Part shown: one piece after another, positions 33,140 through 56,200 of the stretch | Position numbering within the stretch: position 1 is the first letter of the stretch | How the letters are laid out: the number at the start of each line of letters is the position of its first letter | NCBI GenBank assembly: GCA_041666915.1 | Contig: JBAYFZ010000003.1 | Coordinates: 22,394 to 86,393 of the forward strand | From: Minisyncoccota bacterium | Lineage (GTDB): Bacteria; Patescibacteriota; Minisyncoccia; Phycocordibacterales; PALSA-1337 | Reading direction: 5' to 3' | DNA length: 64,000 nucleotides | Program-made: the position numbers and the translations under genes | The notes under the pieces: model-generated | Told to the model about the DNA's origin: nothing | The model's input: the letters and a program-made list of their open reading frames with translations, nothing else | The model's database searches: none

Positions 33140-35401
33140 ATGATGTACGATACCCTTACTTTTACTAATATCAATTTACTCAAAAATATGCCCCTCAAGA
33201 AAATAGTTCATGGTATAACGGTCGCTTCTTTATTCCTTTTGCCGCTTTTTGCTCTATTTCCAATACCTCATACTCCGTTTGAAGTATCTAACCTTTTCTT
33301 TTTCCCATTCATTACCGGTAAAGCTTTCTATTTCAGATTGATGGTTGAGGTCGCTTTCGCAGGATGGCTTATCTTAACTTTTATTGATGCAAAATATAGA
33401 CCAAAATTAACACCACTTACTATTGGTGTAACTTTGTTTACCGTTATCGCTTTTCTTGCGGATATTCTCGGGGTCAATCCTCTTCGCAGTCTTTGGTCAA
33501 ACTTTGAACGTATGGAAGGTTGGATAACAATAGTTCATTTGTGGGCATTGTTCATGGTAACTACAAATGTCTTTGGTTCTGGAGAAGAAGGTAAGAGAAT
33601 GTGGCATCGTTGGTTGAATATGTCTCTTGCTGTTGCTTTGGTCACTGCCTTTTATGGATTGGCTCAATATTTTGGTTGGGCAGAGATTCACCAAGGTAGT
33701 ACACGTTTGGACGCTTCTCTTGGTAACTCAGCATATATGGCAGTTTATATGCTGATCCATGCTTTCATCGCTGCTTATATGTATTTTGTTGCTAAGGCAA
33801 AAAAGATTGTCAATGCTGATTTTTTGAAATGGTTTTATCCTATAATTTCTTTATTGTTTGCTTTCCTTGTATTCCAAACACAGACTCGCGGTACTATTCT
33901 AGGACTCATCGGAGGAATTCTCTTGGCTCTTGGTCTATATGCTTTGCTCGCCAAAAATGAATCAAGTAAATCTCGCGGTATTGCGGTAGGAGTTATAGCT
34001 GTCATCATCTTGATCGGTGTTATCTTCTGGACGAATCGCAATTCTTCTTTTGTTCAAAATAGTCAATTGCTCAATCGTATGGCTAGTATTTCTTGGTCAG
34101 AAGCCAAGGGTCAAGCTCGTAATTACATTTGGCCATTAGCTATAAAAGGTGCAATGGAAAGACCAATTCTCGGTTGGGGACAAGAAAACTTCAACTATAT
34201 ATTCAATGCCAATTACAATCCGGCAATGTACACCCAGGAACAATGGTTTGACCGTGCTCACAGTGTGTTCATAGATTGGTTGGTTGCAGGTGGTTTTGTA
34301 GGTGTTATTGCATATCTTGCATTGTATGTACTATTACTTATGGCAGTCTGGAAATCTTCCATGACCATTGCAGAAAAGAGTGTTCTTACAGGACTTACGG
34401 CTGGATATTTTATCCACAATATCTTCGTCTTTGATAACTTGGCTAGTTACGTTCTATTCTTTACTGTTTTAGGTTTTGCCAATTCACAAACTAGAAGTGA
34501 ACATCGTACATTATTTGGTAAAAATACAGTTAGCAAAGATGCTGTTGAATATGTAGTCGCTCCGATAGTTATAGTTTGTCTGGTTGGTGTATTGTATTTC
34601 TTCCAATATCGTTTGGTACAAGCCAATACACGTCTTATTACTGCTCTGGTTTCTTGTTCAGGAAGCGGTCAGCCAGATGCGACTTTGTATGAGAAAGCTT
34701 TGGATGTAAATGTTTACGGTGCCAACCAAGAGATTCGCGAGCAGATACTTAGTTGTGCTGGTAGAGTTATTCCTTCTCAACAACTTGCAGGTCCTATCCG
34801 ACAAGCTTTCTTTTCTACAGCAATGAATGAGATCCAAGCTCAGATAAAAGCTACTCCTAAAGATACTCGTATTTATACTTTAGGTGGTTCATTCTTGAAT
34901 AGTATAGGACAATTCAATGAAGCTTTACCTCTTCTTGAAAAAGCTCATGAATTATCACCAGCAAAGCAATCAATCTCCTTTGAGTTGGCAACTGATTATT
35001 TGAATCTTGAAAAAGCCGATAAAGCTGTCATCTTACTAAAGCAGGTTTATGAAACCACTCCAGATTTTTATCAAGCAAAATCTTCTTATGCTACAGCCTT
35101 GGTTCTTTCTGGAAAAGAGACAGAGGCTAGAAAGATATTTAGCGATGATTTGGGAATCTTCAACACCGCTCAGATGGCAAAGGCTTTTGTGATGCTCAAA
35201 CAATATTCCAAAGCTATTACAATATATAGAGGTTTGATAAAGGCTAATCCAAAAGATGTAGATCTCCGTGCTCAATTGGCCCAGATACAATATATGGCAG
35301 GTCAGATTTATGAAGCAGTTGCAACTTTGCGTGATATAGAAAAGAGTAATCCAGAATTGAAAGCTCAAATTGACGCTACTATAAAGCAGATACAAAAATA
35401 G
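33140..35401 (+). CDS. O-antigen ligase/polymerase-like membrane protein (Wzy_C-type) with C-terminal TPR repeats
   Basis: An N-terminal domain of about 470 aa has more than 10 TM helices and a large periplasmic loop. The C-terminal 250 aa are TPR-like (YEKALDVN..., AKSSYATALVLSGKETEARKIF...). Confidence 0.6.
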   Translation: MMYDTLTFTNINLLKNMPLKKIVHGITVASLFLLPLFALFPIPHTPFEVSNLFFFPFITGKAFYFRLMVEVAFAGWLILTFIDAKYRPKLTPLTIGVTLFTVIAFLADILGVNPLRSLWSNFERMEGWITIVHLWALFMVTTNVFGSGEEGKRMWHRWLNMSLAVALVTAFYGLAQYFGWAEIHQGSTRLDASLGNSAYMAVYMLIHAFIAAYMYFVAKAKKIVNADFLKWFYPIISLLFAFLVFQTQTRGTILGLIGGILLALGLYALLAKNESSKSRGIAVGVIAVIILIGVIFWTNRNSSFVQNSQLLNRMASISWSEAKGQARNYIWPLAIKGAMERPILGWGQENFNYIFNANYNPAMYTQEQWFDRAHSVFIDWLVAGGFVGVIAYLALYVLLLMAVWKSSMTIAEKSVLTGLTAGYFIHNIFVFDNLASYVLFFTVLGFANSQTRSEHRTLFGKNTVSKDAVEYVVAPIVIVCLVGVLYFFQYRLVQANTRLITALVSCSGSGQPDATLYEKALDVNVYGANQEIREQILSCAGRVIPSQQLAGPIRQAFFSTAMNEIQAQIKATPKDTRIYTLGGSFLNSIGQFNEALPLLEKAHELSPAKQSISFELATDYLNLEKADKAVILLKQVYETTPDFYQAKSSYATALVLSGKETEARKIFSDDLGIFNTAQMAKAFVMLKQYSKAITIYRGLIKANPKDVDLRAQLAQIQYMAGQIYEAVATLRDIEKSNPELKAQIDATIKQIQK

Positions 35402-35581: not shown

Positions 35582-35621
35582 TTTACGGAAGCGAGGCTTC
35601 CGGAGGTGTAACCTCCGTAAA
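35582..35621. repeat. REP-like palindrome (composite: outer TTTACGGA...TCCGTAAA enclosing the 23-bp REP core)
   Basis: tttacggaagcgaggcttccggaggtgtaacctccgtaaa. The core recurs at least 7 more times in the window. Confidence 0.7.
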
Positions 35622-35772: not shown

Positions 35773-36822
35773 ATGACTATTCAGGAAAACATTCCGCTTG
35801 CACAGTATACAACGTTCAAAATTGGCGGATTAGCTAGATATTTTTGTGTGGTTACAAATGAGACAGAACTTATTGAAGCTGTAAAATTTGCTAAAAGTAA
35901 AAAGTTGCACGTATTTATTTTGGGTGGAGGTTCAAATTTGTTGATTTCAGATGAAGGTTTTCGTGGTTTGGTTATAAAGATAGAAAATCGTGGCATTTCT
36001 TACGTAAATAATATGGTTACAGCATTTGCTGGTGAGATCTGGGATGAATTTGTTGCAAATACAGTCAGTCGTGGTTTTGGCGGTTTAGAAAATCTTTCTG
36101 CTATCCCTGGGACTGTAGGTGCTACCGCTGTACAAAATATTGGAGCTTATGGCTCGGATGTTTCCAGTGTTATTGAATCGGTTAGGGTTTTTGATACTAG
36201 TAATTTGGAATTTGTAGTTTTTTCAAATTCTGATTGCGGTTTTGATTATAGAGATAGTATATTCAAACATCAGAAAGGTCGCTTCATCGTAGTTAGTGTT
36301 ACTTTCAAACTTGAAAAGAATAAGAAAGTAGATATTGGCTACAAGGATTTGGCGGAATATTTTTCTAAAAAAGGCTTTGGTGTAGATAGTTCCGATGTGG
36401 GCAACTCTGGTGCGGATGAAAAAATCCCTTCAATTTTAGAAGTTCGTAATGCGGTTATTGAAATACGTGGTAATAAATTGCCTGATTGGAAAATGTGGGG
36501 GACAGCAGGTTCATTTTTCAAAAATCCGATAATTAAAACTAAACAATATGACGATTTGAAAAAGAAATTTCCAGATTTGCCAGGTTTTGTAGAACCAAAT
36601 GGAATGATTAAGATCCCTCTTGGTTGGATTTTGGATAAGATATGTAATTTTAAGGGACAATTTTTTGGTCACGTTGGTGTCTATGAAAAACAAGCTTTGG
36701 TTATTGTGACCAGGCCTGGTGCAAGTTCTACTGAAGTCGTAGAACTTACTAAAAAAATGCAAGATAAAGTCAAAGAAAAAACTGGTTTGATAATAGAAGC
36801 AGAGGTTGAGTGGGTCAATTGA
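35773..36822 (+). CDS. murB: UDP-N-acetylenolpyruvoylglucosamine reductase
   Basis: N-terminal ...LAQYTTFKIGGLARYFCVV...FILGGGSNLL is the FAD-binding MurB signature. The C-terminal MurB domain is present. Confidence 0.85.
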   Translation: MTIQENIPLAQYTTFKIGGLARYFCVVTNETELIEAVKFAKSKKLHVFILGGGSNLLISDEGFRGLVIKIENRGISYVNNMVTAFAGEIWDEFVANTVSRGFGGLENLSAIPGTVGATAVQNIGAYGSDVSSVIESVRVFDTSNLEFVVFSNSDCGFDYRDSIFKHQKGRFIVVSVTFKLEKNKKVDIGYKDLAEYFSKKGFGVDSSDVGNSGADEKIPSILEVRNAVIEIRGNKLPDWKMWGTAGSFFKNPIIKTKQYDDLKKKFPDLPGFVEPNGMIKIPLGWILDKICNFKGQFFGHVGVYEKQALVIVTRPGASSTEVVELTKKMQDKVKEKTGLIIEAEVEWVN

Positions 36823-36826
36823 TTTT

Positions 36827-37211
36827 GTGTCATTCCCGCGAAGGCGGGAATCCAGGATATTACCAAAACATAACGAATAATATGAATAAGGTATATTATG
36901 TTTATATATTAACAAATGATAAGAATGGTACTTTATATATAGGTGTTACTAATGATCTTAGAAGAAGATTGCATGAACACAAGAATAACCTAGTAAAAGG
37001 ATTTACAGAGAAATATAGTATTCACAAATTAGTTTGGTACGAGTGTACTAATAGTATTGATTCTGCAATACAAAGAGAGAAACAGCTTAAAAAGTGGAAT
37101 CGTAGATGGAAGATTAGATTGATTGAAGAAACTAATCCAATTTGGAAAGATTTATCCAGTAATGATCTATAGTGGTAATATCCTGGATTCCCGCCTTCGC
37201 GGGAATGACAC
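36827..37211. mobile_element. Small GIY-YIG element bounded by perfect 38-bp terminal inverted repeats
   Basis: Left: gtgtcattcccgcgaaggcgggaatccaggatattacc (36827-36864). Right: ggtaatatcctggattcccgccttcgcgggaatgacac (37174-37211). These are exact reverse complements, and each arm is itself a hairpin (ttcccgc/gcgggaa). The element is inserted between the murB stop and secA. Confidence 0.65.
36882..37172 (+). CDS. GIY-YIG nuclease family protein
   Basis: MNKVYYVYILTNDKNGTLYIGVTNDLRRRLHEHKNN...KKWNRRWK has the GIY-YIG core (YVYIL...YIGVT...R...E...N). The track ORF starting at 36810 reads through the left repeat; the internal ATG at 36882 is the more likely start. Confidence 0.75.
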   Translation: MNKVYYVYILTNDKNGTLYIGVTNDLRRRLHEHKNNLVKGFTEKYSIHKLVWYECTNSIDSAIQREKQLKKWNRRWKIRLIEETNPIWKDLSSNDL

Positions 37212-37276
37212 AAGAGGCAGTAATGTAACAAAAAGAAAGCACACAAGGCTCGCCTCACCTCAATAAATGTGATAAA

Positions 37277-39988
37277 GTGGCTCTACGCATGTCATTTTTG
37301 GATAAATTAAGAGGTGGTTCTCATACGAAGGCCTTGAAAGGGTTTCAGCCTATCGTAAAAGAGATAAATCAGCTTGAAGCAAAGATTCAGGCTCTTTCTG
37401 ATGAAGAATTGAAAAGAAAGACAGTTGAATTTAAAAAAAGACTTGAAATAGTTGATCCTAAATCTGGCGAAACCTTGAAATTTACCGACCCTGCAGAAGA
37501 AAAGAAAATTTTGAATGCGAAATTAAATGAGATTTTGCCCGAAGCTTTTGCAGTGATTCGTGAAGCATCTCGCCGTACTTTGGGTCAGAGACATTTTGAT
37601 GTTCAACTTCTGGGAGGTATGGTTTTGAATTCTGGAGGTATTGCAGAGATGCGAACTGGTGAAGGTAAGACTTTGGTGGCCACATTACCAGCGTATTTGA
37701 ATGCTCTGACTGGTAAAGGTGTACATATTGTTACAGTCAACGATTATCTCTCTAGACGTGATGCCGTTTGGATGGGTCAGATTTATTCTTTCTTGGGTCT
37801 TTCTGTAGGTGTTATAAACCACGAAGCATCTTTTTTGTATGATGCTACTGCTGTCACACCTAGTGGTGATATCCTGGATTCCCGCCGAAGTTTATCCTCG
37901 AAGGGGACGGTAAATGACAACAAGAGCCAGGAGGTCACACCTCCAGATTCGCTTCCAGATTCACTAGATAAAGAACGCGATTCACTCGGTGCTTTCAAAG
38001 TTGTTCATGAATTTCTACGACCAGTTTCTAGGCACGAAGCCTACATGGCTGACATTACTTATGGTACTAATAATGAATTCGGTTTTGATTATTTGCGTGA
38101 CAATCTAGAATATTCTAGAGATAGGTTGCGTCAGAGAACTTTCAATTACGCTATTGTTGATGAGATTGACTCTATTCTTATAGATGAAGCTAGGACACCT
38201 CTCATTATCTCTGCACCAACTCGTGATGCCGAAAGTACTTACAAACAATTTGCCCAGCTTGTTACTTCATTCAAAAAAGATGAGGACTACACGGTTGAGG
38301 AGAAACATCGTTCAATCTCTCTTACTCCAGCTGGTATTACCAAAGCTGAAAAGGCTCTGGGTATAGAAAATATTTATACAGAAAAGGGTATCAAGTCAGT
38401 CCATCATTTGGAAACTGCTATCAAGGCCGTAGCTTTGTATAACAATAACAAAGAGTATGTGGTCAAAGATAACCAGATCTTGATCGTTGATGAATTTACA
38501 GGACGTATTCAACCAGGAAGACGTTGGTCTGATGGTTTGCATCAGGCTATAGAAGCCAAAGAAGGTGTTTCTATTCAACAAGAGTCTAGGACTTATGCAT
38601 CTATTACATTCCAGAACTTTTTCCGTATGTATCCGAAGTTGTCGGGTATGACAGGTACAGCCGTCACTTCATCTGAAGAATTTTTCAAAGTTTATGGTTT
38701 GGAAGTTACAACGGTGCCTACGAACGTTCCTGCTGTTCGTAAAGATGAGAATGATCAGATCTTCCGCACGGAGATCGGTAAATACAAAGCTATTTCTCGC
38801 AAAGTAAAAGAGCTTCATGCCAAGGGTCAACCTGTTCTTATTGGTACAGTCTCTATTGAAAAAAATGAAGTTTTGTCACAGTTTTTGAAAGCGGAGGGTG
38901 TTCCTCATGAAATTTTGAATGCCAAGAATCATGAACGTGAAGGAGAGATTATCGCTCAGGCTGGCAAAAAGGGTGCTGTGACTATTGCCACAAACATGGC
39001 TGGTCGCGGAGTTGATATCAAACTTGGTGGTAATCCAAATACTCCAGAATCTTATGCAGAGATAAAACAAAACGGTGGTCTTTTTGTCCTTGGTACAGAG
39101 AGACATGAAGCACGTCGCATTGATAATCAACTTCGAGGCCGTTCGGGTCGTCAGGGTGATCCGGGTGAGACGCAATTCTTCGTTTCTCTTGAAGATACTC
39201 TCATGCGTGTCTTTGCTTCGGATATGTTGAAGTCAATGATGGGTAAGCTCGGCATGCCAGAAGATGAGGCTATTGAACATAAGATCATTTCTAGGTCTTT
39301 GGAATCTGCTCAAGAAAAGATTGAGGGATTCAATTTTGATTCTAGAAAACATGTTTTGGAATTTGATGACATCATAAATCACCAGAGAACTGCTATCTAT
39401 GGTAGACGTCGCAAATTGCTTATGGGTACAGTTGATGATGTTGAAGCGGAGTTAGGTCAGATTATTGGGGGAGAGAACTCTGATGTTACGGGAATAATTC
39501 AAAAGAAAATTGCAGAATTTGGTCGCGAACCTTTCTTGATGGCTGTTCGTATAATTTTATTACAGACGATTGATATGTATTGGGTGGAACACCTAGAGGT
39601 AATGGATTACACGCGTTCAAGTGTAAATCTACGCGCTTACGGTCAACGTGATCCTCTGGTTGAATACAAGAAGGAAGGTCTCAGACTATTCAAAGAAATG
39701 CAGGGCGCTATGAGGGAGCAAGTTATTAAAATCATTCCTCATGTAGTCCCAGTCAATGATGGTAATCCTATTGTCAGCAGTAATTCAAGCAATTCAAATG
39801 GCGCTTCAAAACCTGTTGGTATTCAAGCTGATCTGAAGGAGGTTCATGAAAATGCTCAGATTATTGGTGCAGGTGATGGCTCAAGTAGTTCAAATTCTAT
39901 TAAAAAAGAACCTGAAGTAGGTCGCAACGATCCTTGTCCTTGCGGAAGTGGTAAGAAATACAAGAAATGTCATGGGGCGGGGAAGTAA
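37277..39988 (+). CDS. secA: Preprotein translocase ATPase SecA
   Basis: [59 protein letters not shown], and the C-terminal zinc finger [14 protein letters not shown]. It has an in-frame insertion of about 55 aa after LGLSVGVI. Confidence 0.9.
37861..37886. repeat. 26-nt copy (25/26) of the outer end of the GIY-YIG element's right inverted repeat plus its preceding 'tagtggt', embedded in-frame in secA
   Basis: tagtggtgatatcctggattcccgcc at 37861-37886 versus tagtggtaatatcctggattcccgcc at 37171-37196. Confidence 0.6.
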
Positions 39989-40866: not shown

Positions 40867-41943
40867 ATGATTTCAAGAGTCTCCGCATACTTCTTTTTTG
40901 TCTTATTACTCTGTGCTGTTGTAGCGTCAGTCTTTATTTTCTTGCCATTTTTGACACCGATCATTTTGGGTATAGCTGCTTCGGTTATTGCTTACCCAGT
41001 CTATCGTTGGTTCAGTAAACTTTTTGGAGTTGGTAAAGTTGGTGCTGGAGCAGCTAGGACAAATTTGGCTGCTTTTCTTACCGTCCTTATTCTTGTTGTC
41101 GTTGTCGTTGTACCAGTATTCTTTTTGATCAGTAGAATGTACGTTGAAGTCCAATCTCTTTACACAGCTTTAACAGATGAATCAGAACGCTCGGTTATTA
41201 TCAATAGTCTAAATTCATTGTCCCAGTCATTATCAAATAGACTTTTCAATGTTTTCCCAGCTTATTCTTTTGATTCGCTGAACATTACAGAGTATATGAA
41301 AGGCTTTTTGATCTGGATATTTGGCAATCTGGATAAGATTTTCACTGGTGTAGCGACGGTTGCAATCTATTTGTTCGTCTTCTTATTATCAATGTTCTAT
41401 TTCCTTAGAGATGGAGCAATGATCAAGAGAAAATTTGTCTCATGGAGTCCCTTGCTTGATAATTATGATGAGTATATTACCATAACTTTGAAGAAAGCCA
41501 TTCTGTCGGTTTTCGGAGGTACTGTCGTCGTTGCTTTGATTCAAGGAATACTGACTGGATTTGGCTTCTGGATTTTCGGTGTGCCGGCTCCAGCGGTTTG
41601 GGGTGCCGTGGCATCTATCGCAGCCTTTATTCCTGGAATAGGTACAAGTCTGGTTATTGTCCCTGGAATATTGTACTTGGTATTAACTGGTAATTATCCT
41701 TATGCGGTAGGGTTAACTATTTGGGGAACAGTCGCGGTAGGCCTTATTGATAATATTCTTGGTCCTCATTTGATCAATAAAGGAGTACACATTCATCCAT
41801 TCCTTATTCTTATTTCAGTCTTGGGTGGATTGTCAGTTTTTGGACCAGTCGGATTTGTTCTAGGACCTCTCATACTTTCATTACTCTTTGCATTACTAGA
41901 GATATATAGAACATCATTTACTAACATCAAGGATGGAGAGTAG
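40867..41943 (+). CDS. AI-2E family transporter (PerM/UPF0118 membrane protein)
   Basis: 358 aa, about 8 TM segments, the characteristic length and topology. C-terminal ...GPLILSLLFALLE. Confidence 0.7.
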   Translation: MISRVSAYFFFVLLLCAVVASVFIFLPFLTPIILGIAASVIAYPVYRWFSKLFGVGKVGAGAARTNLAAFLTVLILVVVVVVPVFFLISRMYVEVQSLYTALTDESERSVIINSLNSLSQSLSNRLFNVFPAYSFDSLNITEYMKGFLIWIFGNLDKIFTGVATVAIYLFVFLLSMFYFLRDGAMIKRKFVSWSPLLDNYDEYITITLKKAILSVFGGTVVVALIQGILTGFGFWIFGVPAPAVWGAVASIAAFIPGIGTSLVIVPGILYLVLTGNYPYAVGLTIWGTVAVGLIDNILGPHLINKGVHIHPFLILISVLGGLSVFGPVGFVLGPLILSLLFALLEIYRTSFTNIKDGE

Positions 41944-41995
41944 AGCTAAGAGTTAAGAGGTAAGAGCTAAGATTAATCACAAATTACATCGGCTT

Positions 41996-42043
41996 CTTTA
42001 CCTCTTACCTCTTACCTCTTACCTCTTACCTCTTACCTCTACC
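41996..42043. repeat. Heptanucleotide microsatellite (CCTCTTA)x6 immediately upstream of the obg start
   Basis: cctcttacctcttacctcttacctcttacctcttacctcta. The purine-rich complement (gttaagaggtaagag) lies at 41951-41967, so a stem-loop is possible. Confidence 0.8.
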
Positions 42044-42046
42044 ATC

Positions 42047-43036
42047 ATGGCTCTCATTGACGAAATACAATTTCATGCAAAAGCAGGCAACGGCGGTAAC
42101 GGCGTTGTTCGTTGGCGTCATGAGAAGAATAAAGAATTTGCTGGCGCAGGAGGTGGTAACGGTGGACCTGGTGGGGATGTCTACGTACGGACTGTTCGCG
42201 ATATAAATATCTTAGCTAGACATAAAACTACAAAATTATTCCAAGCTAGAAATGGTGACGATGGACAAAATTTTAATATGCAAGGTAAGGCTGGAGATGA
42301 TTGTTATATAGATTTACCGATCGGTTCAGTGATTGTAAATCTGCAGACTGGACGTACAATTGAGCTATTCAATGAAGGGGAAGAACAGAAGATTCTACAC
42401 GGTGGTCGTGGCGGTCTTGGTAATGAGTACTTCAAGGCTTCTACAAATATTAGACCTGAGCAATCAACTGACGGTGTCTATGGTGAAGAGGCTGACTTTA
42501 CGGTTGAATTGAACCTCATCGCTGACGCGGGGCTTATTGGTCTTCCTAATGCAGGTAAATCTAGTCTGCTGAACGCACTCACGGAGGCACGCGCGAAGGT
42601 TGGTAGTTATCAATTTACAACTCTGGATCCTAACCTAGGAGCTTTACCAGGAGGTTATATTCTCGCTGATTTGCCAGGACTTATAGAAGGTGCGGCTGAA
42701 GGTAAAGGTCTCGGTCATAAGTTCTTGAAGCATGTAAAGAGAACAAAAATGTTGCTCCATCTTGTTTCTTTGGAGAATGAAAATGTTATAGAAGTTTATC
42801 AAGGTATTAGAAAAGAATTGGAGAGATTTGGTGAGGGTTTGGATCAAAAAGAAGAAATAATAATTCTTACGAAGACGGATCTTGTAGGTCCAGAAAAGAT
42901 AGAAGAAGCGAGAAAGAGTCTTTCCGGAGGTGTAACCTCCGGAAATAAGACGCCGACTATTCTCACTGTTAGTATTTTAGATGATGGATCTATTAAAGAT
43001 TTGTCGGATAAATTGACTAAGAAGTTGGCGGAGTAG
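42047..43036 (+). CDS. obg: GTPase Obg/CgtA
   Basis: N-terminal glycine-rich Obg fold (GGNGGPGGDVYV). G1 GLPNAGKSSLLNAL, G3 DLPGLIEGA, G4 TKTD. Confidence 0.9.
   Translation: MALIDEIQFHAKAGNGGNGVVRWRHEKNKEFAGAGGGNGGPGGDVYVRTVRDINILARHKTTKLFQARNGDDGQNFNMQGKAGDDCYIDLPIGSVIVNLQTGRTIELFNEGEEQKILHGGRGGLGNEYFKASTNIRPEQSTDGVYGEEADFTVELNLIADAGLIGLPNAGKSSLLNALTEARAKVGSYQFTTLDPNLGALPGGYILADLPGLIEGAAEGKGLGHKFLKHVKRTKMLLHLVSLENENVIEVYQGIRKELERFGEGLDQKEEIIILTKTDLVGPEKIEEARKSLSGGVTSGNKTPTILTVSILDDGSIKDLSDKLTKKLAE
42922..42944. repeat. REP copy inside the obg coding sequence (encodes SGGVTSGN)
   Basis: ttccggaggtgtaacctccggaa, a perfect 10-bp-arm palindrome. Confidence 0.8.
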
Positions 43037-43628
43037 GGAAGTTTCTTCCGGAGGTGTAACCTCCGGAAAACAGTATTGGTGTTTGTTTACGAATCTCACC
43101 TAAATAATCTTTGAAGCTAGAGTACTCATAATTTTTAGAATAGGCCATTGCTTCCATGGCATGTTCCTTCTGAGCTTCTTTTGACATTTCTGGTTCCTTG
43201 ATCCCGTAAGGATTTAGATGGACATAATTGATTAGCTTATCAAGATAATCTTTTTCGTACACACCTTTTTCTTTGAACGATCCTTGCCAGATAGTTCCAG
43301 AATGATCGTATTTTTTGTTGTAATAACCAGAATAGCCAGTGCAGAATTTATGCATGAATTTAGTAATGTTTTCTGGAGGTGAAGCCTCCGGAAGTTTTAA
43401 GACGATATGGAAATGATTAGGCATTAAACAATAAGCGACAATATCAACAAGCGTACCTTTACGTTCAATTGAAAATATATCTTTTTCTCCGAAACCTTTG
43501 AGTTCAAAAGATTCGGTATTATTAGCTATATAGAGTAGTTTCAACATACGCCAATAGTCGCTGGCGTCATTAAAAATGACTGCTTTATGAGCTCCTCGGT
43601 TGTAGATATGATAGTAAATTTCTTTCAT
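43017..43628 (-). CDS. REP-associated tyrosine transposase (RAYT; IS200/IS605-like Y1 HuH transposase)
   Basis: HuH motif MPNHFHIVLKLPE. Catalytic Tyr region DYLDKLINYVHLNPYG and a downstream YSSF, as in E. coli RAYT (YIYINPVKHG...WPWSSF). It is flanked on both sides by REP palindromes. Confidence 0.75.
   Translation of the reverse strand: MKEIYYHIYNRGAHKAVIFNDASDYWRMLKLLYIANNTESFELKGFGEKDIFSIERKGTLVDIVAYCLMPNHFHIVLKLPEASPPENITKFMHKFCTGYSGYYNKKYDHSGTIWQGSFKEKGVYEKDYLDKLINYVHLNPYGIKEPEMSKEAQKEHAMEAMAYSKNYEYSSFKDYLGEIRKQTPILFSGGYTSGRNFPTPPTS
43046..43068. repeat. REP copy (terminator-like hairpin between convergent obg and RAYT)
   Basis: ttccggaggtgtaacctccggaa, 9 nt after the obg stop. Confidence 0.8.
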
Positions 43629-43632
43629 ATTT

Positions 43633-43654
43633 TTCCGGAGGTGTAACCTCCGAA
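43633..43654. repeat. REP copy immediately 5' of the RAYT start
   Basis: ttccggaggtgtaacctccgaa. Confidence 0.75.
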
Positions 43655-43742
43655 ATTGTATATTATCAGGACGAGTTAAAATCCTGATAAAGAAAGGTTA
43701 AAGAAATGATAAAAAAGTTATGAAGAAACAATGAAGATTTCC

Positions 43743-43765
43743 TCCGGAGGTGTAACCTCCGGAGT
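43743..43765. repeat. REP copy
   Basis: ctccggaggtgtaacctccggag. Confidence 0.75.
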
Positions 43766-43817
43766 CAGCCGAGATTTCGGAAAAACAGAGACATGTCTCT
43801 CGAAAGGGTAGGGAATT

Positions 43818-43842
43818 AAAACACCGCTAGTTGGCGGTGTTT
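43818..43842 (-). terminator. Candidate bidirectional rho-independent terminator downstream of gatB
   Basis: aaacaccgc-tagtt-ggcggtgttt. The minus-strand reading is followed by ttaatt; the plus-strand reading is followed by tattat. Confidence 0.4.
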
Positions 43843-43914
43843 ATTATAGTTTATTAATGTTTAAATATTTTATATGGCTCTAATTCGTTCCGGATGTCAG
43901 ACATCAGAAAAGTG

Positions 43915-45498
43915 TTAACCAATCTTTTCTATGAGTAACTTCTTCAGTATTTCAGGGTTGGCTGAACCTTTTGTGGCTTTCATCGCTTGACCTATGAGGA
44001 ATTGGAGTGAAGCAGTTTTACCGTTTTTGTATTCAGCTATTACAGAAGGGTTGGTAGAGATGATGTTTGCGATGACTGGATCAAGTGCACCAAGATCACT
44101 CTTTTGGATAAGGTTATTTTTTTCAGCGAATGCACGCAATTGACCAGCTTCAACATGAGTCGATTTGCTATCAGTTCCACCTACGAGTAATATCAAAAGA
44201 TCTTTTGCTCCACGTGAAGAAAGGTCACCACTTACGATGAGTTCAATGAGTTCAGCGAAGGTGTCTGATCCGATTGGTCCGAGAATGCCCGAAGATTTTG
44301 CATCAGATCCGATTGAACCTTTTTTATCTGCTGAATTATTTTTTTCGGTGTTTGTATTTGAACTGACATTTTCTGTTGAATCGGTCGTGCCAGTTGAATC
44401 ATTTGTACCAGAGACTTTTTTGAGTAGTCCCAAGTAATCAGTGAGGAGATAGTTGACAGCAAGTTTGATCTTCTTTGCATCACCTTTGAATGTGGAAATG
44501 ACTGATTCAAAATATTTTGCAACTTCTGGTTGTTCTATGAATACCGCAACTTCTTTGTCAGTCATGCCAAAAGAATTTTTGAAGCGATCTCGTTTTGTCC
44601 ATGGCAACTCTGGCAAATCTTTTTCTATAACATTTTTAGAAAATTCCGGCATCTCAGAAATTTTCAACTTTGGAATATCTGGTTCAGGGAAGTAGCGATA
44701 GTCATGAGAACTTTCTTTTTTTCGTTGAGAATAAGTTTCTCCGGCGGAGTCATCCCAACCTCGAGTCTCTTGCACGACAACTTCACCAGCTTCAAGGAGA
44801 GAAGTCTGACGTAGAAGTTCACACTCAATAGCTTTTTCTACAGAACGAAATGAATTTAAATTTTTGACTTCAGTCTTCGTTCCAAATTTTCCTTTGGTAG
44901 TGTCAGCGGGGGAGGCGATAGAAATATTTGCTTCAACACGCATTTCTCCTTTTTCCATATTTGCTTCACCAGCTCCAAGGTAACGTAAAAGTAGTTGCAA
45001 CTCTTTTGCGAAACGTACAGCAGTGACGGCATCATGGATGACAGGTTTTGTAACGAGCTCCATGAGCGGTACTCCAGATCTATTAAAATTTACTAAACTT
45101 TTTTCGTGTGAGTCGTGAGTGGACTGGGCAGTGTCTTCTTCAAGATGGATTCTCTCTAGTTCAATGCCAGCAAGATTTCCTCCAGAGACGAGAGGGTATT
45201 TGTATTGAGAGATCTGGTAACCTTTTGGTATATCAGGATAAAAATAATTTTTGCGATCCCATTCTGTAAAATCGGCAATAGTTCCACCTATGGCTGTACC
45301 TACGCGGATAACATGTTTGATTGCTTCTTTGTTGAGGACTGGAAGAGTACCTGGGTGAGCTAGACAGATAGGGCAGACATTTTGGTTAGGTTTTTCTTCA
45401 TCTGGATTGTTCCTACAAGAACAGAACATCTTTGAATTAGTACGAAGCTCGGCGTGTATTTCCAAGCCAATAGTTGGTATATATTTATTGTTTTCCAT
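43915..45498 (-). CDS. gatB: Asp-tRNA(Asn)/Glu-tRNA(Gln) amidotransferase subunit B
   Basis: MENNKYIPTIGLEIHAELRTNSKMFCSC..., VCPICLAHPGTLPVLNKEA, and a C-terminal GatB/YqeY domain. A low-complexity S/T/N/D-rich insert of about 50 aa sits before the tail domain. Confidence 0.9.
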   Translation of the reverse strand: MENNKYIPTIGLEIHAELRTNSKMFCSCRNNPDEEKPNQNVCPICLAHPGTLPVLNKEAIKHVIRVGTAIGGTIADFTEWDRKNYFYPDIPKGYQISQYKYPLVSGGNLAGIELERIHLEEDTAQSTHDSHEKSLVNFNRSGVPLMELVTKPVIHDAVTAVRFAKELQLLLRYLGAGEANMEKGEMRVEANISIASPADTTKGKFGTKTEVKNLNSFRSVEKAIECELLRQTSLLEAGEVVVQETRGWDDSAGETYSQRKKESSHDYRYFPEPDIPKLKISEMPEFSKNVIEKDLPELPWTKRDRFKNSFGMTDKEVAVFIEQPEVAKYFESVISTFKGDAKKIKLAVNYLLTDYLGLLKKVSGTNDSTGTTDSTENVSSNTNTEKNNSADKKGSIGSDAKSSGILGPIGSDTFAELIELIVSGDLSSRGAKDLLILLVGGTDSKSTHVEAGQLRAFAEKNNLIQKSDLGALDPVIANIISTNPSVIAEYKNGKTASLQFLIGQAMKATKGSANPEILKKLLIEKIG

Positions 45499-46224: not shown

Positions 46225-46247
46225 TTACGGAGGTTACACCTCCGGAA
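46225..46247. repeat. REP copy in inverted orientation, within the AT-rich 45769-46350 control region
   Basis: ttacggaggttacacctccggaa (loop tta/cac, the reverse of gtgtaac). Confidence 0.7.
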
Positions 46248-46350: not shown

Positions 46351-47526
46351 ATGAAAGATAGCTTTATTATTGAAGGTAAAAAATACATCTCGTCTAGACG
46401 AGCTTCCGAAATCTCGGACTATGCTTCTGATTACATCGGACAACTTTGTCGAGCAGGAAAGTTGGATTGCAAAATGGTCGGACGTGCATGGTTCATTACC
46501 GAAGAGTCTCTCAGTCTACACAAAACAAATGTTCTCCAAGATGAAGTTGTCAGAAACAGGATTGAAAATCTCCGTGGAAAGAAAAATAGGAACTTGGTTG
46601 TAAGCTCAGAAGCAATTAAGACTTCCGCTTCTACACAGACTCAGACTTCAACCAATGTTGTAACAGTTACAAACTCCTCAATAGTTGTTAGTTCAAATCC
46701 TGTAATATCAAATCAACAAGCTCCTGTTGTTTCGGGGTCTACTCCTGCACAATCCAAAGTTTCTGGTTCATCATTTGTTTACACTTCTGATGAAAGGCCA
46801 TTGTTACCAGTATTGAAGAAGCCTGTTACACCAGTTGCGAATGTTTCTAAGAATAAAAAAATACTTTCATTCTTATCAAAGAATGAAAGTAAATCAGCTG
46901 TTACAAAAAATAGATCAGCTAGTGAGATCGCTGGAAAAGTTACAAAGTCTCTCAAGAAGTTAACTACAGTAGGAAAACCTATCATCTCATATCCAGAACT
47001 TACTCGTTCAATAATTTTGAGACGTGCACTTGCTTCAGCTCTAGTAATCATGTTCTTTATCGGTATGGGTACGATGACTTTCAATATTTTCAATAGTGAA
47101 GAAGTCTCGGTCGCAACCAATGCTTCTAGTTCTCCTAGTGTTGCATCGGGATCGGCCAGAGCAAATGTTTACGATGTGATAATGGTTGCTACTTCTTTTG
47201 TTAAAAATGGATTTGGCAATATTGCATCTTTGTTTACAAAAACATCAAAACTCACTCTCAACGATACATCTCCGCCAGATGGTTTTGGTGGTAGTCAAGG
47301 ACTATCACCAAATGGTTTAGCAGTCACATCATCAAGTGGTTCGGATAGTGTAGATGAAGCGGTTAAACAAAAGATTAAGGGTTCGTTTTCAGATGAAGTT
47401 GAAGTTAGTCCAGATGAGAGTGGTACAGCAGGTGTGATCACTCCAGTGTTTAGAGAGTCAAAAGGAAAAGATTTTATTTATGTAATGGTTCCGGTAGATG
47501 GTAAGGGGGCAAGCGTGACACCGTAA
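46351..47526 (+). CDS. Membrane-tethered protein: N-terminal Xis/HTH_17-like DNA-binding domain, S/T-rich linker, single TM, extracytoplasmic C-terminal domain
   Basis: N-terminus: KKYISSRRASEISDYASDYIGQLCRAGKLDCKMVGRAWFITEESL, which is an HTH_17 pattern. TM: ILRRALASALVIMFFIGMGTMTF at about aa 215-237. No known domain after the TM. Confidence 0.45.
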   Translation: MKDSFIIEGKKYISSRRASEISDYASDYIGQLCRAGKLDCKMVGRAWFITEESLSLHKTNVLQDEVVRNRIENLRGKKNRNLVVSSEAIKTSASTQTQTSTNVVTVTNSSIVVSSNPVISNQQAPVVSGSTPAQSKVSGSSFVYTSDERPLLPVLKKPVTPVANVSKNKKILSFLSKNESKSAVTKNRSASEIAGKVTKSLKKLTTVGKPIISYPELTRSIILRRALASALVIMFFIGMGTMTFNIFNSEEVSVATNASSSPSVASGSARANVYDVIMVATSFVKNGFGNIASLFTKTSKLTLNDTSPPDGFGGSQGLSPNGLAVTSSSGSDSVDEAVKQKIKGSFSDEVEVSPDESGTAGVITPVFRESKGKDFIYVMVPVDGKGASVTP

Positions 47527-50178: not shown

Positions 50179-50234
50179 GGGTAAGGGATTAGAGGATAGA
50201 GAATTAGGGATTAGAAAAAGGGGGCAAAGAAGCA

Positions 50235-53200
50235 ATGAATAAAAATTTTATTAAAAACTTAGGAAAAAATATCATCAAGGTTGCACCTCGATGTTTTGTT
50301 ATCTTTACTTTAATTATTTCTTTCATTGTTTCTCCTTTGTCAGTTTTTGCCGTTCAGTCTACATTTACAACTTCTCTAACTACTACTGGAGTTGCTACAA
50401 CACCACCGGCAATACCTTCCAATCTTTTGGCTACCGCAGTCTCTGATACACAGATTGATCTTTCTTGGACAGCTTCGGTTCCGACATTCTACACAGTTAC
50501 TGGTTATAGGATTTTCCGTGATTCTGTATTTTTGGCCACAACTAGTTCAGTGGTTTATTCCGATACAGGTTTGACTCCAGAGACAGCTTATTCATATACA
50601 GTAGAAGCTTTTGATTCAATTATTCAATTGTCTGGACAGTCTGCCACTTCTACAGCTACAACTACAGCAACACCAGTTGTTCCTCCTGTAACTCCTCCAG
50701 TAACACCACCTTCTTCTGGTGGAGGAAGTTCGGGATCTTCAGTGATCAATATCACTGATATTAAGGTCGTCGCTGGAACAAATAATGCAAATATTTCATT
50801 TAAGACCAATGTATCAGCTCAGACGAAAGTCCAGTGGGGATTCTCAAATGATTTTGAAATCGGTTCCCTTCAAAATATTTTTTATGGAAAAGAACATTCT
50901 CAAATGATAAATGGTCTTGTTGAAGGTTTAACATATTTTGTCAGGATTACAGCTACCAATAGTCAAGGTATATCTACATATAGAGATATTTCTTTCAAGA
51001 CTGATCTTGCTGTAGTAGAACTTGGTCCTTTGCCAAACCCATCAAATTTCTTGGCACAAGCTACAGACAAAAATATCAATCTTACTTGGGACAATCCTAT
51101 AGATGAGAGATTCAATAATGTCAGAATAGTTCGTACAGAAGGATTTTTCCCAATAGATCAATTTGACGGTACTCCTATATATGAGGGTGATGGTCAATCT
51201 TTTGTAGATAAGAGTGCAAAAATCGGTACTACGTATTACTATGCTATTTTTGCAAAGGGTATAGATGGAGAATATTCTTCAGGTGCTTTGGCTCAAGCTC
51301 GCATCGCTCCAGCTGGAGAGATAGTAGTCTCGCCAACTTCAACAGATCCATTTATAAATATTCCAGAGTCAACAAATGTGGATCCGATGATCAAAAAGAT
51401 TACTTTGTCTGATTTTGAATTTATTCAAGAAGGGAAAAATCTTTCAGTTATCGGTAGTACGGTTGCTATAAAAGGTGGCGAAAATCTAACTATTCGTCTT
51501 GCATACAACAAAGTTCCTGAAATTTTGAAGACAGTTGCTTTCACCTTGCAAGATCCATCAGATAAAACAAAAGTCTTCCCATTTTTGTTACGTATCAATG
51601 CTGACAAGACTTACTATGAAGCGACTATTGGTGCTTTGGGTAAATCTGGTCGTTATGGAATGTCAGTAGTTATTTTGGATTATGAAAATAAAGGTTTGAA
51701 ACGTTTGAATGGAACTCTTGCTGCGCTTGCTTTCAATGCAATGCCTTTTGATTTCGGTAATAATTTTGATTTCTTGGGCATATTGTTGTTGCTCTTGGTA
51801 ATCATCCTTGTTATTTTGGCTATCGCATTGCTTCGTAAGTGGATCAATTATTCTCCAGAACATCAGACTGTAGACAAACCAAAAACTTCTGGAGTTACTA
51901 TTTCCAGAGATGTTTTCAATGCTATTTCAAAGATTTCAATATTTGTCTTGGTTGTTACGGCTTCATTCGGAATTCAACAAGCATTTGCTACTACTTTCAA
52001 TCCAGAGATAAATTATCAAGGTAAATTGACCGATAGTGTTGGTTCAAATGTTGCCAATGGTTCATATAGTATTCGTTTCAAACTTTATACGACCTTGTCT
52101 GGAGGTTCACCTATTTGGACTGAGACATGGTGTAACACTTCAACTTGTGATGGTTTGGGTACAGGTGCGGATAGTAGAATAACTTTGACTAGTGGATTAT
52201 TTAGCACCATGCTTGGAAGTACGACTGCTTTAGATGGCATTGATTTCAATCAGCCTCTATATCTCGGTGTTGAGATCGGAGGTTCTGGAGCAACGGCTTC
52301 ATGGGATGGGGAAATGTCACCTCGTAAGATTCTCGGAGCTGTCCCTTCCGCATTTTATTCCGCAACTTCTACGGTGGCTCTTTCTGCAAATTCTGCTGAC
52401 ACCTTATCTGGATTGAATTCTTCACAATTCCTTCGCTCTGATATACAAAATGCTACTTCATCATCTTCAACTTTCTTCAGTGTCTTACAATCTGGTGCTG
52501 GTAAGATTGCAGAATTTTTTGGGAGCGCAGCACAAAGTGTCTTTTCAATTTTATCAAATGGTAATGTCGGAGTCGGAACAACTACTCCATCATCTAGGTT
52601 TAATGTTTATGGTGACGTATCTTTCCAAACTCCATCAAATTCAGCCACAGCTTTTCAGATACTAAACTCGGCCACCAGTTCGGTTTTCTCTGTAGCTACT
52701 ACAGGCTTTGGTACTACTACTTTAGCTGGTCTAACTATTTCTGGTTCAGCTACTTCTACCTCTAACGTAGGTTGGAATATCTCCACGGGATGTTTTGCAG
52801 TCAACGGTGTCTGTTTGAGTGGTGCAGATGGTACGGCCAGTTCCACTCTATTATCTGATACCAACACATGGACAGGTTTGAATGTCTTTGGTTATGCAAG
52901 TACCACTCAGATCAGTTCAACAGGAAATGCTTATCTTGCTACGACTGGTGGGAATGTTGGTATCGGCACCACTTCGCCATTCGCAAAATTTGCAATCAAT
53001 CCAATTGCTGGTGATGGGGCGTCATTCGTCATTGGTTCTTCTACTAGAACAGATTTTATAGTTACAAATGAAGGAATGATTGGGGTTGGAAGCACGAGCC
53101 CTTCTGCAATTTTCAGTATCTTAGGACGAAACGGCAAGACACAAGGTACGGCGGAAACTAGGATTGCACCAACAGCTCTCTATGTTCAAGGAGGAACCGG

Positions 53201-56200
53201 TGGTGGAGGATCTTCGATCCCTGGGGGTAAAGGAGCGGATATTATCCTTATCGCTGGTAATGGAGCAAGTTCTGCTTTAGGAGATGGTAACGGAGGTAGT
53301 TTAACATTTACGGCCGGTAATGGTGGTGCTACTGATGGGAGTGGTGTTGGTGGAAATGTAACAATAAATCCAGGTCTAACTGGAGGTGGAGGTAATGGTA
53401 AAATTGTCTTAGCTGATTTGCGAGGTAATGTTGGAGTTGGTACCACTTCACCATTCAGTAAACTTTCAGTTTCTACTCCTGCTCAACAAAGCGGATCATT
53501 ACCACTCTTTACAGTTGCTTCTACAACGAGTGCCTCGCTACTTACGGTTCTTGGGAATGGCAATGTGGGGATTGGTACGGCGGTGCCTACAAGTGTTTTA
53601 GATGTTAATGGAAATATAAATGCTACAACCATGATAGCCGGTACTCATCTACTTGTTCAGAATACAGGAATATATTATGACTCGGTTTCCAATGGAGCGT
53701 ATTCTTTTGCAAATTCTGGTGTTGATCTTGCTCTCAAAACAGCCTCTGTCGGCACAGTTATGACGATTAAAGATGCCGGCCTCGTAGGCATCGGCACCTC
53801 TACCCCATATTCCAAACTCTCCGTCTGGGGTTCTTCAACAGGAACAAACAGAATGTTTGAATTAACCAACAGTGCTTCAACAACACTAATGAGTATGTTG
53901 GAAAATGGTACAGGTTATTTCTTGGGTAATATCGGAATTGGCACCACCACTCCAGGTACTATTCTTTCTCTTGGAAATACCGGTGATAGCACCATCAATC
54001 TTTCAGTTACAGCCACTTCAACCTTTGGTACAGGAATAAATCTACGAACAGGTTGCTTCGCTGTAAACGGAACTTGTGTCGGTGGTGCAGATGGTACTTC
54101 AAGTTCTACTCTATTATCAGACACTAACACTTGGACAGGTTTGAATGTCTTTGGGTACGCAAGTACCACGCAGATATCTTCAACAGGTTCCGCCTATTTC
54201 GCAACAACTGGTGGGAATGTTGGAGTTGGTACAACTTCACCTTTCAGTAAACTTTCAGTTTCTACTTCTGCACAACAGAGTGGAACATTACCACTCTTTA
54301 CAGTTGCTTCTACAACGAGTGCTTCATTATTTACAGTTTTGGGAAATGGGAATGTGGGGATTGGGACTTCTACTGTTTCAGAAAAACTTTTTGTGGAAGG
54401 CAACATTGCTCCTTCAATGACTAACCTATATACCGCTGGTAGCTACACTCTAAATTCCGCTGTTGCTTCCGTAGCTAATATTACAGCTTCAGGAATCGCT
54501 AATTCAGATCTACTTGGTGTTAGTTCCGCTTCTGCTGGAGATGTGAATGGTGATGGTATTAACGATGTTATTATCGGTGCAACTGCTGCTGATGGTGCAG
54601 GTACCGATCGTGGTCAAGCTTACATCTTCTTTGGTTCAACCACTCCTAGGACAACATTTGCTCCTGCTTCTGCCGACGTTATCCTTTCTGGTTCAGAAGA
54701 TTCTGGTAGTTTTGGTACTAGTGTCGCCTCTGCTGGAGATGTAAACGGTGATGGATATGGCGATGTGATAGTCGGAGCTACTAATGTTGCTGGCGGAGGT
54801 TCATATCGTGGTCAAACATATATCTTTTATGGAGGCCCAAATTTCACAGGTGCAATAATTGCTTCTTCTGCAAATGTAATTATTTCCGGAGCGGCTGATT
54901 ATGATAGTAATGGTCAAGTTGTAGCTTCTGCAGGAGATGTAAACGGTGATGGATATGGCGATGTGATCATGACTGCATTGTCTGCTGATGATGGAGGTTT
55001 TGATCGTGGTCAAGCCTATATCTTTTATGGTAAGCCAAACCTTGCAAGTACATATACTACAGCAAATGCTGATGTTATTATTTCAGGAAATACCGATGGT
55101 GTTCAGATGGGTAATAGCGTAGCTTCTGTTGGAGATGTGAACGGTGATGGATATGGCGATGTGATCATTGGTGCACAATCTGCAGATGTTGGAGGTAATA
55201 ATCGCGGTCAAGCCTATATCTTTTATGGTAAGCCAAACCTTGCAAGTGCTTATTCAGCTTCTTCTGCGAATGTTATTGTCACTGGAATGGTAGATATGGG
55301 CTTTATGGGTATCAGTTCTGCTTCTGCTGGAGATGTGAACGGTGATGGATATTCTGACTTTATCATTGGGGCAAGTAGTGCAGCTGGTGGAGGTACTTCT
55401 CGCGGTCAAGCCTATGTCTTCTACGGTAAATCAAATTTAGCAAGTACATATTCTGCATCTTCCGCTAATGTAACTATTTCCGGAATCGCCAATAGTGATG
55501 CTCTTGGTTACAGTGTTGCCTCCGCTGGAGATGTGAATGGTGACGGATATGGAGATATTATAGTTGGAGCAGTTGGTGCCGCTGGTGGAGGTACATCTCG
55601 CGGTCAAGCATATATTTTCTACGGTAAGTCTGATCTTTCAAGTACTTATACAGCTTCATCTGCAGACGTTGCTTTTTCAGGAATTGCCACTAGTGATGCT
55701 TTTGGTTCCAGTGTTACTTCTGCTGGAGATATAAATAATGATGGGTACTCTGATGTTATGGTTGGAGCATATGGTGCCGCTGGCGGAGGTACATCTCGCG
55801 GTCAAACATATATCTTTACCCCAACCGGCAATCGTTTCAAATCTATTTATGCACAAAGTGGTAGCTTTACAAAGGGAATACAACTAGGTGGTGGAATGTC
55901 AACGTTGAATGCTTACGGTCTTTCAAGCCTAAGTCAATTTTCATTAAACACGGCAGATTGGTCAATCAGTAAATCAGGAACTTCTTCCATGCAGAGTTTG
56001 ATAGTTTCTGGAAATGTTGGTATCGGTACAACTTCGCCATTCTCAACTCTTTCTGTTTCTACTCCTGTACAGCAGAGTGGATTGTTATCGCTCTTCACGG
56101 TTGCTTCTACTACGGGCGCTTCTCTATTTTCTGTCTTAGGCAATGGAAATATCGGCATCGGCACGACCACTCCGGGCACACTTTTATCTCTTGGAAACAC

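Follow-up and report, generated by a model that had tools for sequence, protein, structure and literature searches.

A REP-type palindrome in the reading frame of obg, beside a RAYT-like transposase gene, in a Paceibacterota genome

How does a palindrome that recurs in non-coding DNA come to be translated as part of an indispensable GTPase? The question is raised by obg in a stretch of 64,000 nucleotides (the window) of the Paceibacterota contig JBAYFZ010000003.1, where a 23-nt palindrome of the repetitive extragenic palindromic (REP) type, TTCCGGAGGTGTAACCTCCGGAA, lies within the reading frame and a second copy follows the stop codon. We consider it probable that the obg palindrome truly belongs to a lineage-specific REP family whose cognate REP-associated tyrosine transposase (RAYT) gene lies downstream, and that it is carried in frame as a selfish or neutral passenger in a permissive loop. 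The gene and the palindrome are placed as follows.

42047-43036, plus strand: obg, an open reading frame (ORF) of 329 aa encoding the Obg fold and the GTPase domain, without the C-terminal domain
42921-42945, plus strand: REP copy in obg, 25 nt with its flanks, an exact match to the 23-mer at 42922-42944

The product of the ORF matched Pfam GTP1_OBG (1.6e-40) and MMR_HSR1 (1.2e-24), scored 332 bits against NCBIfam Obg_CgtA (cutoff 280), and was 100% identical to an NCBI protein named 'GTPase ObgE [Candidatus Paceibacterota bacterium]'. A preliminary description of this DNA had reported a perfect 23-bp palindrome translated within obg and a second REP 9 nt past its stop, and we observed both: the obg copy has 0 mismatches, and 9 nt separate the TAG stop (43034-43036) from the copy that starts at 43046. 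The translation across the palindrome reads ...ARKSLSGGVTSGNKTPTIL..., in which the codons TCC GGA GGT GTA ACC TCC GGA give S293-G-G-V-T-S-G299. One of the six reading frames of the palindrome contains a stop, and the frame in use yields Ser, Gly, Val, and Thr. As a separate observation upstream of the gene, a heptamer array (AGAGNTA, 4.4 units) and a complementary one (TTACCTC, 6 units) occupy 41942-42040, between the stop of an AI-2E transporter gene and the start of obg. The two arrays pair in one extended hairpin (-38.7 kcal/mol, z -5.7), from whose end 5 nt (42042-42046) remain to the obg ATG.

The preliminary description had placed the palindrome in a variable C-terminal extension, and this placement has to be corrected. 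The site lies inside the G domain, in the loop between the helix that follows G4 (T275-K-T-D278) and the strand that precedes G5 (V308-S-I-L-D-D), and the protein terminates just after the last G-domain helix. An alignment with E. coli ObgE was continuous through the helix ...KAIAEAL and ended at the loop. An AlphaFold2 model, used for secondary-structure placement only given its moderate mean predicted local distance difference test score of 66.6, predicted a helix at 282-295, a loop at 296-303, and a strand at 304-307. GGVTSG is thus predicted to occupy a surface loop of the G domain and not a C-terminal extension. In an alignment of 44 orthologues (73-83% identity), a six-residue gap stood opposite GGVTSG in 38 of the 43 other sequences; relative to REP-free orthologues, the palindrome adds six codons (GGVTSG), a net gain of 18 nt and a multiple of three, the property that the preliminary description had proposed to look for. 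That description had also named a sign of mere chance resemblance, namely the same residues encoded by non-palindromic DNA in relatives. Relatives lack these residues altogether: the modal, short loop was found in 106 of 120 Obg orthologues.

To define the repeat family, the window was searched for copies with up to 3 mismatches, in comparison with 100 shuffles, and for degenerate copies at 6 mismatches. Seven distinct copies were found at the first threshold (0.00 expected), in agreement with the earlier claim of a repeated REP-type palindrome, and two decayed ones at the second (37926, in secA, and 43888). Besides the obg copy, they are:

35598-35620, plus strand: dispersed intergenic copy, 1 mismatch, between ORFs 33140-35401 and 35773-36822
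37926-37948, minus strand: decayed REP-like palindrome in secA, 6 mismatches, plus-strand reading QEVTPPD
43046-43068, plus strand: identical copy 9 nt past the obg stop, minus-strand reading SGGYTSG, the tail of the RAYT-like protein
43371-43393, plus strand: degenerate copy inside the RAYT-like gene, 3 mismatches, after the HUH motif, minus-strand reading LPEASPPEN
43633-43655, plus strand: copy with 1 mismatch, 4 nt upstream of the start codon of the RAYT-like gene
43742-43764, plus strand: distal copy beyond the RAYT leader, 2 mismatches, with a perfect 19-nt core
43888-43910, plus strand: relic hairpin TTCCGGATGTCAGACATCAGAAA, 6 mismatches, just past the gatB stop
46225-46247, minus strand: dispersed intergenic copy in the opposite orientation, 1 mismatch, upstream of ORF 46351-47526

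The obg copy has TTTCC...GGAAA ends, an 11-bp stem, and a 3-nt loop; stems in the family measure 10-11 bp. Its predicted folding energy was -20.3 kcal/mol as RNA (z -5.1; -20 to -21 kcal/mol for either strand) and -13 kcal/mol as DNA (z about -5). Six of the nine copies cluster within ~1 kb around the RAYT-like gene, against ~0.14 expected under an even spread. Five of the nine are intergenic and four lie in coding sequence although the region is ~94% coding, a distribution that fits selection purging most genic hits, and the genic copies all fall in length-variable segments. The copies at 42922-42944 and 43046-43068 are identical (0 mismatches to the 23-mer), so the obg copy is probably young or recently homogenised. 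The secA copy had been put forward as a parallel case of insertion into an essential gene. A palindrome-like copy is indeed present there, but it is decayed (17 of 23 bases match), folds weakly (-9.9 kcal/mol, z -1.9), and reads QEVTPPD in a length-variable segment of SecA.

We also looked for the exact 23-mer elsewhere. A genome collection returned three single matches, in unrelated high-GC or other taxa, which we attribute to chance, and no further contig of the window organism. A metagenome collection returned seven contigs, of which L008 and L010 alone resemble the window in G+C content (37% in the window); their copies are intergenic, L010 carries an inverted pair 71 nt apart, and the likeness of these two contigs to the window organism is one of G+C content only. 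Neither Rfam at its gathering threshold (33-48 kb) nor a tRNA search of the window gave a match.

The gene bracketed by these palindromes was overlooked in the preliminary description, which had recorded REP copies at the locus correctly. Its two parts are:

43017-43628, minus strand: gene for a RAYT-like Y1/HUH transposase (203 aa), converging on obg and sharing its final 20 nt
43656-43741, minus strand: conserved RAYT leader between two REPs, defined by an alignment of five RAYT upstream regions

The protein scored 33.4 bits against Pfam Y1_Tnp (cutoff 23), and its best NCBIfam match was REP_Tyr_transpos (NF047646, E 1.6e-12). A sequence search of the PDB gave insignificant matches only, with E. 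coli TnpA-REP (4er8) at E 0.55. There were 2465 homologues, several of them titled 'REP element-mobilizing transposase RayT' by JGI. In an alignment of 24 homologues the HUH motif (H72-F-H74) and Y135-V-H-L-N-P fell on invariant columns (H72, H74, Y135, N139, and P140), and past the conserved ...RxQxxIL the tails vary and, in homologues, are REP-encoded. We read the window protein as a member of a related but divergent clade of RAYTs. REP copies at 43046, 43633, and 43742, the last of them 86 nt beyond its neighbour, bracket the gene, and RAYT genes flanked by other REPs were also found in L013, L015, L016, and L018 (L numbers denote loci or contigs of relatives). The position near the RAYT start, that of the 43633 copy, is kept in L016 and L018. 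The ~80-nt leader, which includes ...TTTATCATTTCTTTAACCTTTCTTTATCAGGATTTTA..., several CTTTTTTTATCA motifs, and a small hairpin, is common to the window and these four loci and is conserved although their REPs differ entirely. It contains a promoter-like site (43690-43662, minus strand), the sole one in 42600-44000 in a consensus promoter scan. One RAYT gene was found in the 64-kb window, and two homologues lie on one 461-kb contig elsewhere. By its sequence features, the obg-RAYT region has the anatomy of a REP/RAYT locus.

Comparison with relatives then bears on the history of the obg palindrome. The informative loci, with their Obg identity to the window, are:

L011 and L012 (Obg 83%): no RAYT in the locus, obg followed directly by gatB; no REP and a short loop
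L014 (Obg 81%): RAYT adjoins obg; its own REP, GTCGATGTCGGACATCGAC, in the same loop (+4 codons), with another just past the stop
L015 (Obg 74%): RAYT adjoins obg; the same loop holds TTTTCCGAGAGGTCGGACCTCTCGGAAAA (+4 codons)
L013 (Obg 81%): RAYT adjoins obg; a different Obg loop, the second, holds AGCGATATCCGATATCGCT after LLHLxSLE (+2 codons, AISDIA)
L017 (Obg 75%): RAYT 19 kb off on that contig; the second Obg loop holds a GAGGCCTCGCCTCGAGGCGAGGCCTC dimer (+7 codons)

The repeats are not confined to obg in these lineages. In L015, Obg is extended at its C terminus by a second copy, the RAYT gene contains a third, and a fourth lies at the RAYT 5' end; L013 has six more copies around its RAYT. 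In the genome that includes L017 and L018, the RAYT is flanked by the GAGGCCTCGCCTCGAGGCGAGGCCTC repeat, which is also found in obg and several other genes, and in L018 (1-6588) this repeat and its variants lie inside called genes, so that intragenic REPs are common; the genes concerned encode the NiFe hydrogenase large subunit, pyruvate:ferredoxin oxidoreductase (POR, two clusters), a thiamine pyrophosphate (TPP) enzyme, and a CoA ligase. The comparison indicates that five different REPs, each the RAYT-flanking repeat of its own genome, lie in frame in two Obg loops. The loop is empty in the RAYT-free L011 and L012, and the modal loop is the one found in loci with neither a RAYT beside obg nor a REP in it. 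The Obg loop of P0036 is longer by 8. L020 (P0102, loop +9) has no clear palindrome, and in L019 (P0028, second loop, +7) the sole palindrome is imperfect, with 11-bp arms and no second copy in 4.4 kb; not every long Obg loop is therefore demonstrably REP-derived.

In a distance tree of Obg (quick neighbour-joining, without support values), the REP-free and RAYT-free P0002 was the sister of the window sequence, and L014 and L015 were placed elsewhere, among many short-loop sequences. This placement favours independent hits. RAYT identities to the window (54% for L013, 61% for L015, 76% for L016) are not congruent with the Obg identities (81% for L013, 74% for L015), a mismatch that speaks against plain vertical inheritance of the locus. 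The preliminary description had called the palindrome mobile; mobility is suggested here by the comparison between species.

REPs were also found within RAYT genes. Perfect copies lie directly after the HUH motif in L015 (11304-11326) and L016 (8040-8064), as the degenerate copy does in the window, in a loop that is variable in the RAYT alignment. In L015 this copy causes no length change relative to homologues with the shortest loop (13 residues, the commonest length). In 5 of 103 RAYT homologues, at least 6 residues are common to the post-HUH loop and the protein's own C-terminal tail (for example QDVSHPE, REVRPLG, SMSDID). A REP in the RAYT gene might act in autoregulation, might be a master copy kept safe there, or might merely occupy another permissive loop. 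The RAYT of L016, the closest homologue (76-77% identity), is not beside obg; it adjoins a reverse transcriptase gene (RVT_1) and a bAvd gene, a pair resembling a diversity-generating retroelement (L016 5765-8405), and that reverse transcriptase gene contains one copy of the L016 REP, TTTCGGGAGGTGTCACCTCCCGAAA.

How would such a palindrome be tolerated? Hairpin chemistry on single-stranded DNA is established for E. coli TnpA-REP and for IS200/IS605 enzymes. We reasoned that a RAYT acting on the single-stranded hairpin would seed REP copies and that, in a ~94% coding genome, many hits would fall in genes. In an indispensable gene, the copies that survive would be those that keep the frame, contain no stop, encode small, flexible residues, and lie in a permissive surface loop. 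The obg copy would survive because it has these properties: it keeps the frame, has no stop, is rich in Gly/Ser, and occupies a permissive loop. As a tolerated selfish or neutral passenger, it would need no function of its own.

Several observations weigh against this proposal. That the window RAYT acts on the window hairpin is suggested by analogy with characterised enzymes. The RAYT-like protein reached 47.5 bits against NF047646, below the equivalog cutoff of 80, and seven copies aligned with their flanks lacked the GTAG/CGTC tag, showing only T-rich 5' and A-rich 3' flanks; in both respects the system does not fit described REP/RAYT families. All RAYT-flanking copies in the window have the same orientation, with the GTA loop on the plus strand; elsewhere, L013 has inverted doublets and L015 one inverted 5' copy. 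The window obg allele belongs to a single-member Obg cluster, with no REP-free allele of the species among the sequences compared. The net gains in the shared loop (+18, +12, and +12 nt) are smaller than the palindromes (25, 19, and 29 nt), so simple insertion relative to the modal allele is not demonstrated. Finally, one loop holding three different REPs could mean targeting or function.

An alternative that we regard as possible but doubtful is a single ancient REP insertion in the Obg loop, overwritten in each lineage by that lineage's REP, through gene conversion from the copy ~100 nt downstream or RAYT-mediated replacement, and lost in most descendants. The same loop is filled in the window, L014, and L015 by three REPs, each identical to its own neighbouring copy, and net gains below palindrome length fit replacement better than fresh insertion. 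In addition, the L013 loop, two codons longer, shares E-V...R-T with L014 and resembles a decayed remnant of the L014 type; the relic at 43888-43910 appears intermediate between the window and L014 REPs; and a RAYT occupies the same obg-gatB gap in four lineages. However, in the distance tree the sister of the window is P0002, with neither a REP nor a RAYT, and L014 and L015 belong to other branches. Because these two branch among many short-loop sequences, the scheme needs many precise losses. It concerns the history of insertion and is compatible with the palindrome being a passenger. The relic itself combines, when compared by eye, outer arms like those of the window REP with a core, GATGTCnGACATC, like that of the L014 REP, which hints at stepwise compensatory change relating the REP types of these lineages.

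A function for the hairpin appears less probable still, and we judge it quite improbable that the element was co-opted, whether to form the 3' end (or terminator) of the RAYT transcript that converges on obg, and so limit antisense transcription into obg, or to modulate obg mRNA translation or stability. In a consensus scan, the minus-strand hairpin followed by GACTCTTTCT, 72 nt past the RAYT stop, was flagged as terminator-like, all four loci with an adjacent RAYT have the obg REP downstream of the RAYT stop, and the hairpin is stable on both strands. Yet such a scan gives no more than matches to a consensus, the window has a weak T tract and the L014 and L015 hairpins are followed by none, obg of L017 carries a REP although its RAYT is 19 kb away, and the same REPs lie inside many unrelated genes. 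With the T tract lacking in L014 and L015, we rejected a terminator role as the main explanation. A mis-join induced by the repeat in a metagenome-assembled contig is very improbable: the window allele is known from one contig, but both flanks align in frame with Obg orthologues across the insert, the repeat is merely 23 nt, and four independent assemblies from other samples show an in-frame obg REP. The chance of a coincidental palindrome, or of selection for the peptide SGGVTSG that is incidentally palindromic, is practically negligible. Gly/Ser loops are common, and nothing further speaks for it; the identical 23-mer recurs in non-coding window DNA with 0 expected, orthologues lack these residues, and the REPs of relatives encode different peptides. 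The repeat counts, the short-loop orthologues, and the differing peptides refute it.

The tolerated-passenger explanation can be set against known systems. REP/REPIN-RAYT systems (Nunvar 2010; Bertels & Rainey 2011; Ton-Hoang 2012; Bertels 2017, PMC5581495) share with the window a short G+C-rich hairpin repeat, copies on both flanks of one Y1/HUH transposase-like gene, whose HUH and Tyr motifs are intact, and otherwise mainly just outside genes, and a repeat specific to each lineage's RAYT. They differ in that the window host belongs to the candidate phyla radiation (CPR; Paceibacterota) and its RAYT is divergent, in the missing tag, in the single orientation of the flanking copies, in the REP that the RAYT gene carries within its own coding sequence, and in the low density away from the RAYT neighbourhood (~3 copies in 63 kb). 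Overall, membership of the REP/RAYT group as judged from sequence is supported by the hairpin, by the way its copies flank the gene, and by the catalytic motifs. Like IS200/IS605 elements, the window has a Y1/HUH transposase of the Pfam Y1_Tnp family, with hairpins on one strand at either end and a conserved leader upstream of the gene; in contrast to them, it has one RAYT copy in 64 kb with no sign of duplication of the gene there, and its hairpins also occur singly, far from the gene.

Intragenic palindromes have precedents. Rickettsia palindromic elements (RPEs) are one: RPE-1 exceeds 100 bp, within an element range of roughly 100-150 bp, and we know of no adjacent cognate transposase for it. 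RPE-1 encodes tens of residues, compared with six additional codons from 23-25 nt in the window, and there is no sequence relationship between the two. The likeness is one of behaviour, a reduced, host-dependent bacterium with an in-frame palindrome and function apparently kept, and the window REP is analogous to an RPE, not a member. In the passages that cite Ogata et al. 2000 in PMC3733652 and PMC3184786, RPEs are described as selfish palindromes in frame in genes, with RPE-1 up to 146 bp. Di Nocera et al. 2013 (PMC3733652) reported intragenic REPs from Opitutus terrae, Rickettsia conorii, Thauera, and others, and argued, along the same lines as we do for obg, that in-frame REPs in known proteins are neutral, lying in linkers or loops, and that gene-inactivating insertions are purged. 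Those REPs likewise lie in frame within known protein genes; they carry GTAG or CGTC tags, and many are in replication or repair genes, whereas the window copy is untagged and in obg, and in the window lineages the same two Obg loops have been hit by different REPs. A search of a literature library found no report of RAYT/REP systems or in-frame REPs in Patescibacteria/CPR.

Intragenic REPs and RPEs are thus already known, and the obg copy is an event of this known kind in a CPR lineage, which extends selfish palindromes in coding genes from Rickettsia and a few REP-rich bacteria to ultra-small, gene-dense genomes. To us the most noteworthy pattern is that the same Obg loops hold different REPs, together with a REP within the RAYT gene. 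The loops of a conserved GTPase, empty in some lineages and filled in others by a RAYT-specific hairpin, form a natural experiment that opens the joint turnover of REP populations and their RAYT to comparative genomics, and they raise the question of what share of short in-frame loop decoration in CPR proteins comes from mobile hairpins rather than adaptation. Inserts of this kind make the proteins of CPR genomes look more divergent and can lead alignments astray. A further idea, speculative and in our estimate unlikely, is that RAYT/REP systems of Paceibacterota, besides scattering copies between genes, place the hairpin of the day time and again in a small set of loops in core proteins (two in Obg, others in SecA and, after the HUH motif, in the RAYT) and replace it there as the REP evolves; the loops would then track the REP 'master sequence', and the RAYT-internal REP would be a protected master copy or an autoregulatory site. 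In SecA of L015 (5733-8681), a segment of ~27 residues, SPRVPEVNPPPGAMSGLGEDLTQGQ..., occurs twice, at two separate places in the protein.

Two other features of the window were observed. Between murB and secA, a GIY-YIG nuclease gene (36826-37212, Pfam 3.5e-17) is bracketed by ~40-nt inverted repeats, TGTGTCATTCCCGCGAAGGCGGGAATCCAGGATATTACC and its complement, and this repeat occurs several times in contig L010; from its sequence, the gene with its repeats looks like a separate small mobile element. At the end of the window, a single open frame of at least 4597 codons (50208-63998) runs off the edge, and GGAGGT recurs every 198 nt in 54795-55785, which suggests tandem repeats of 66 residues in a giant protein.

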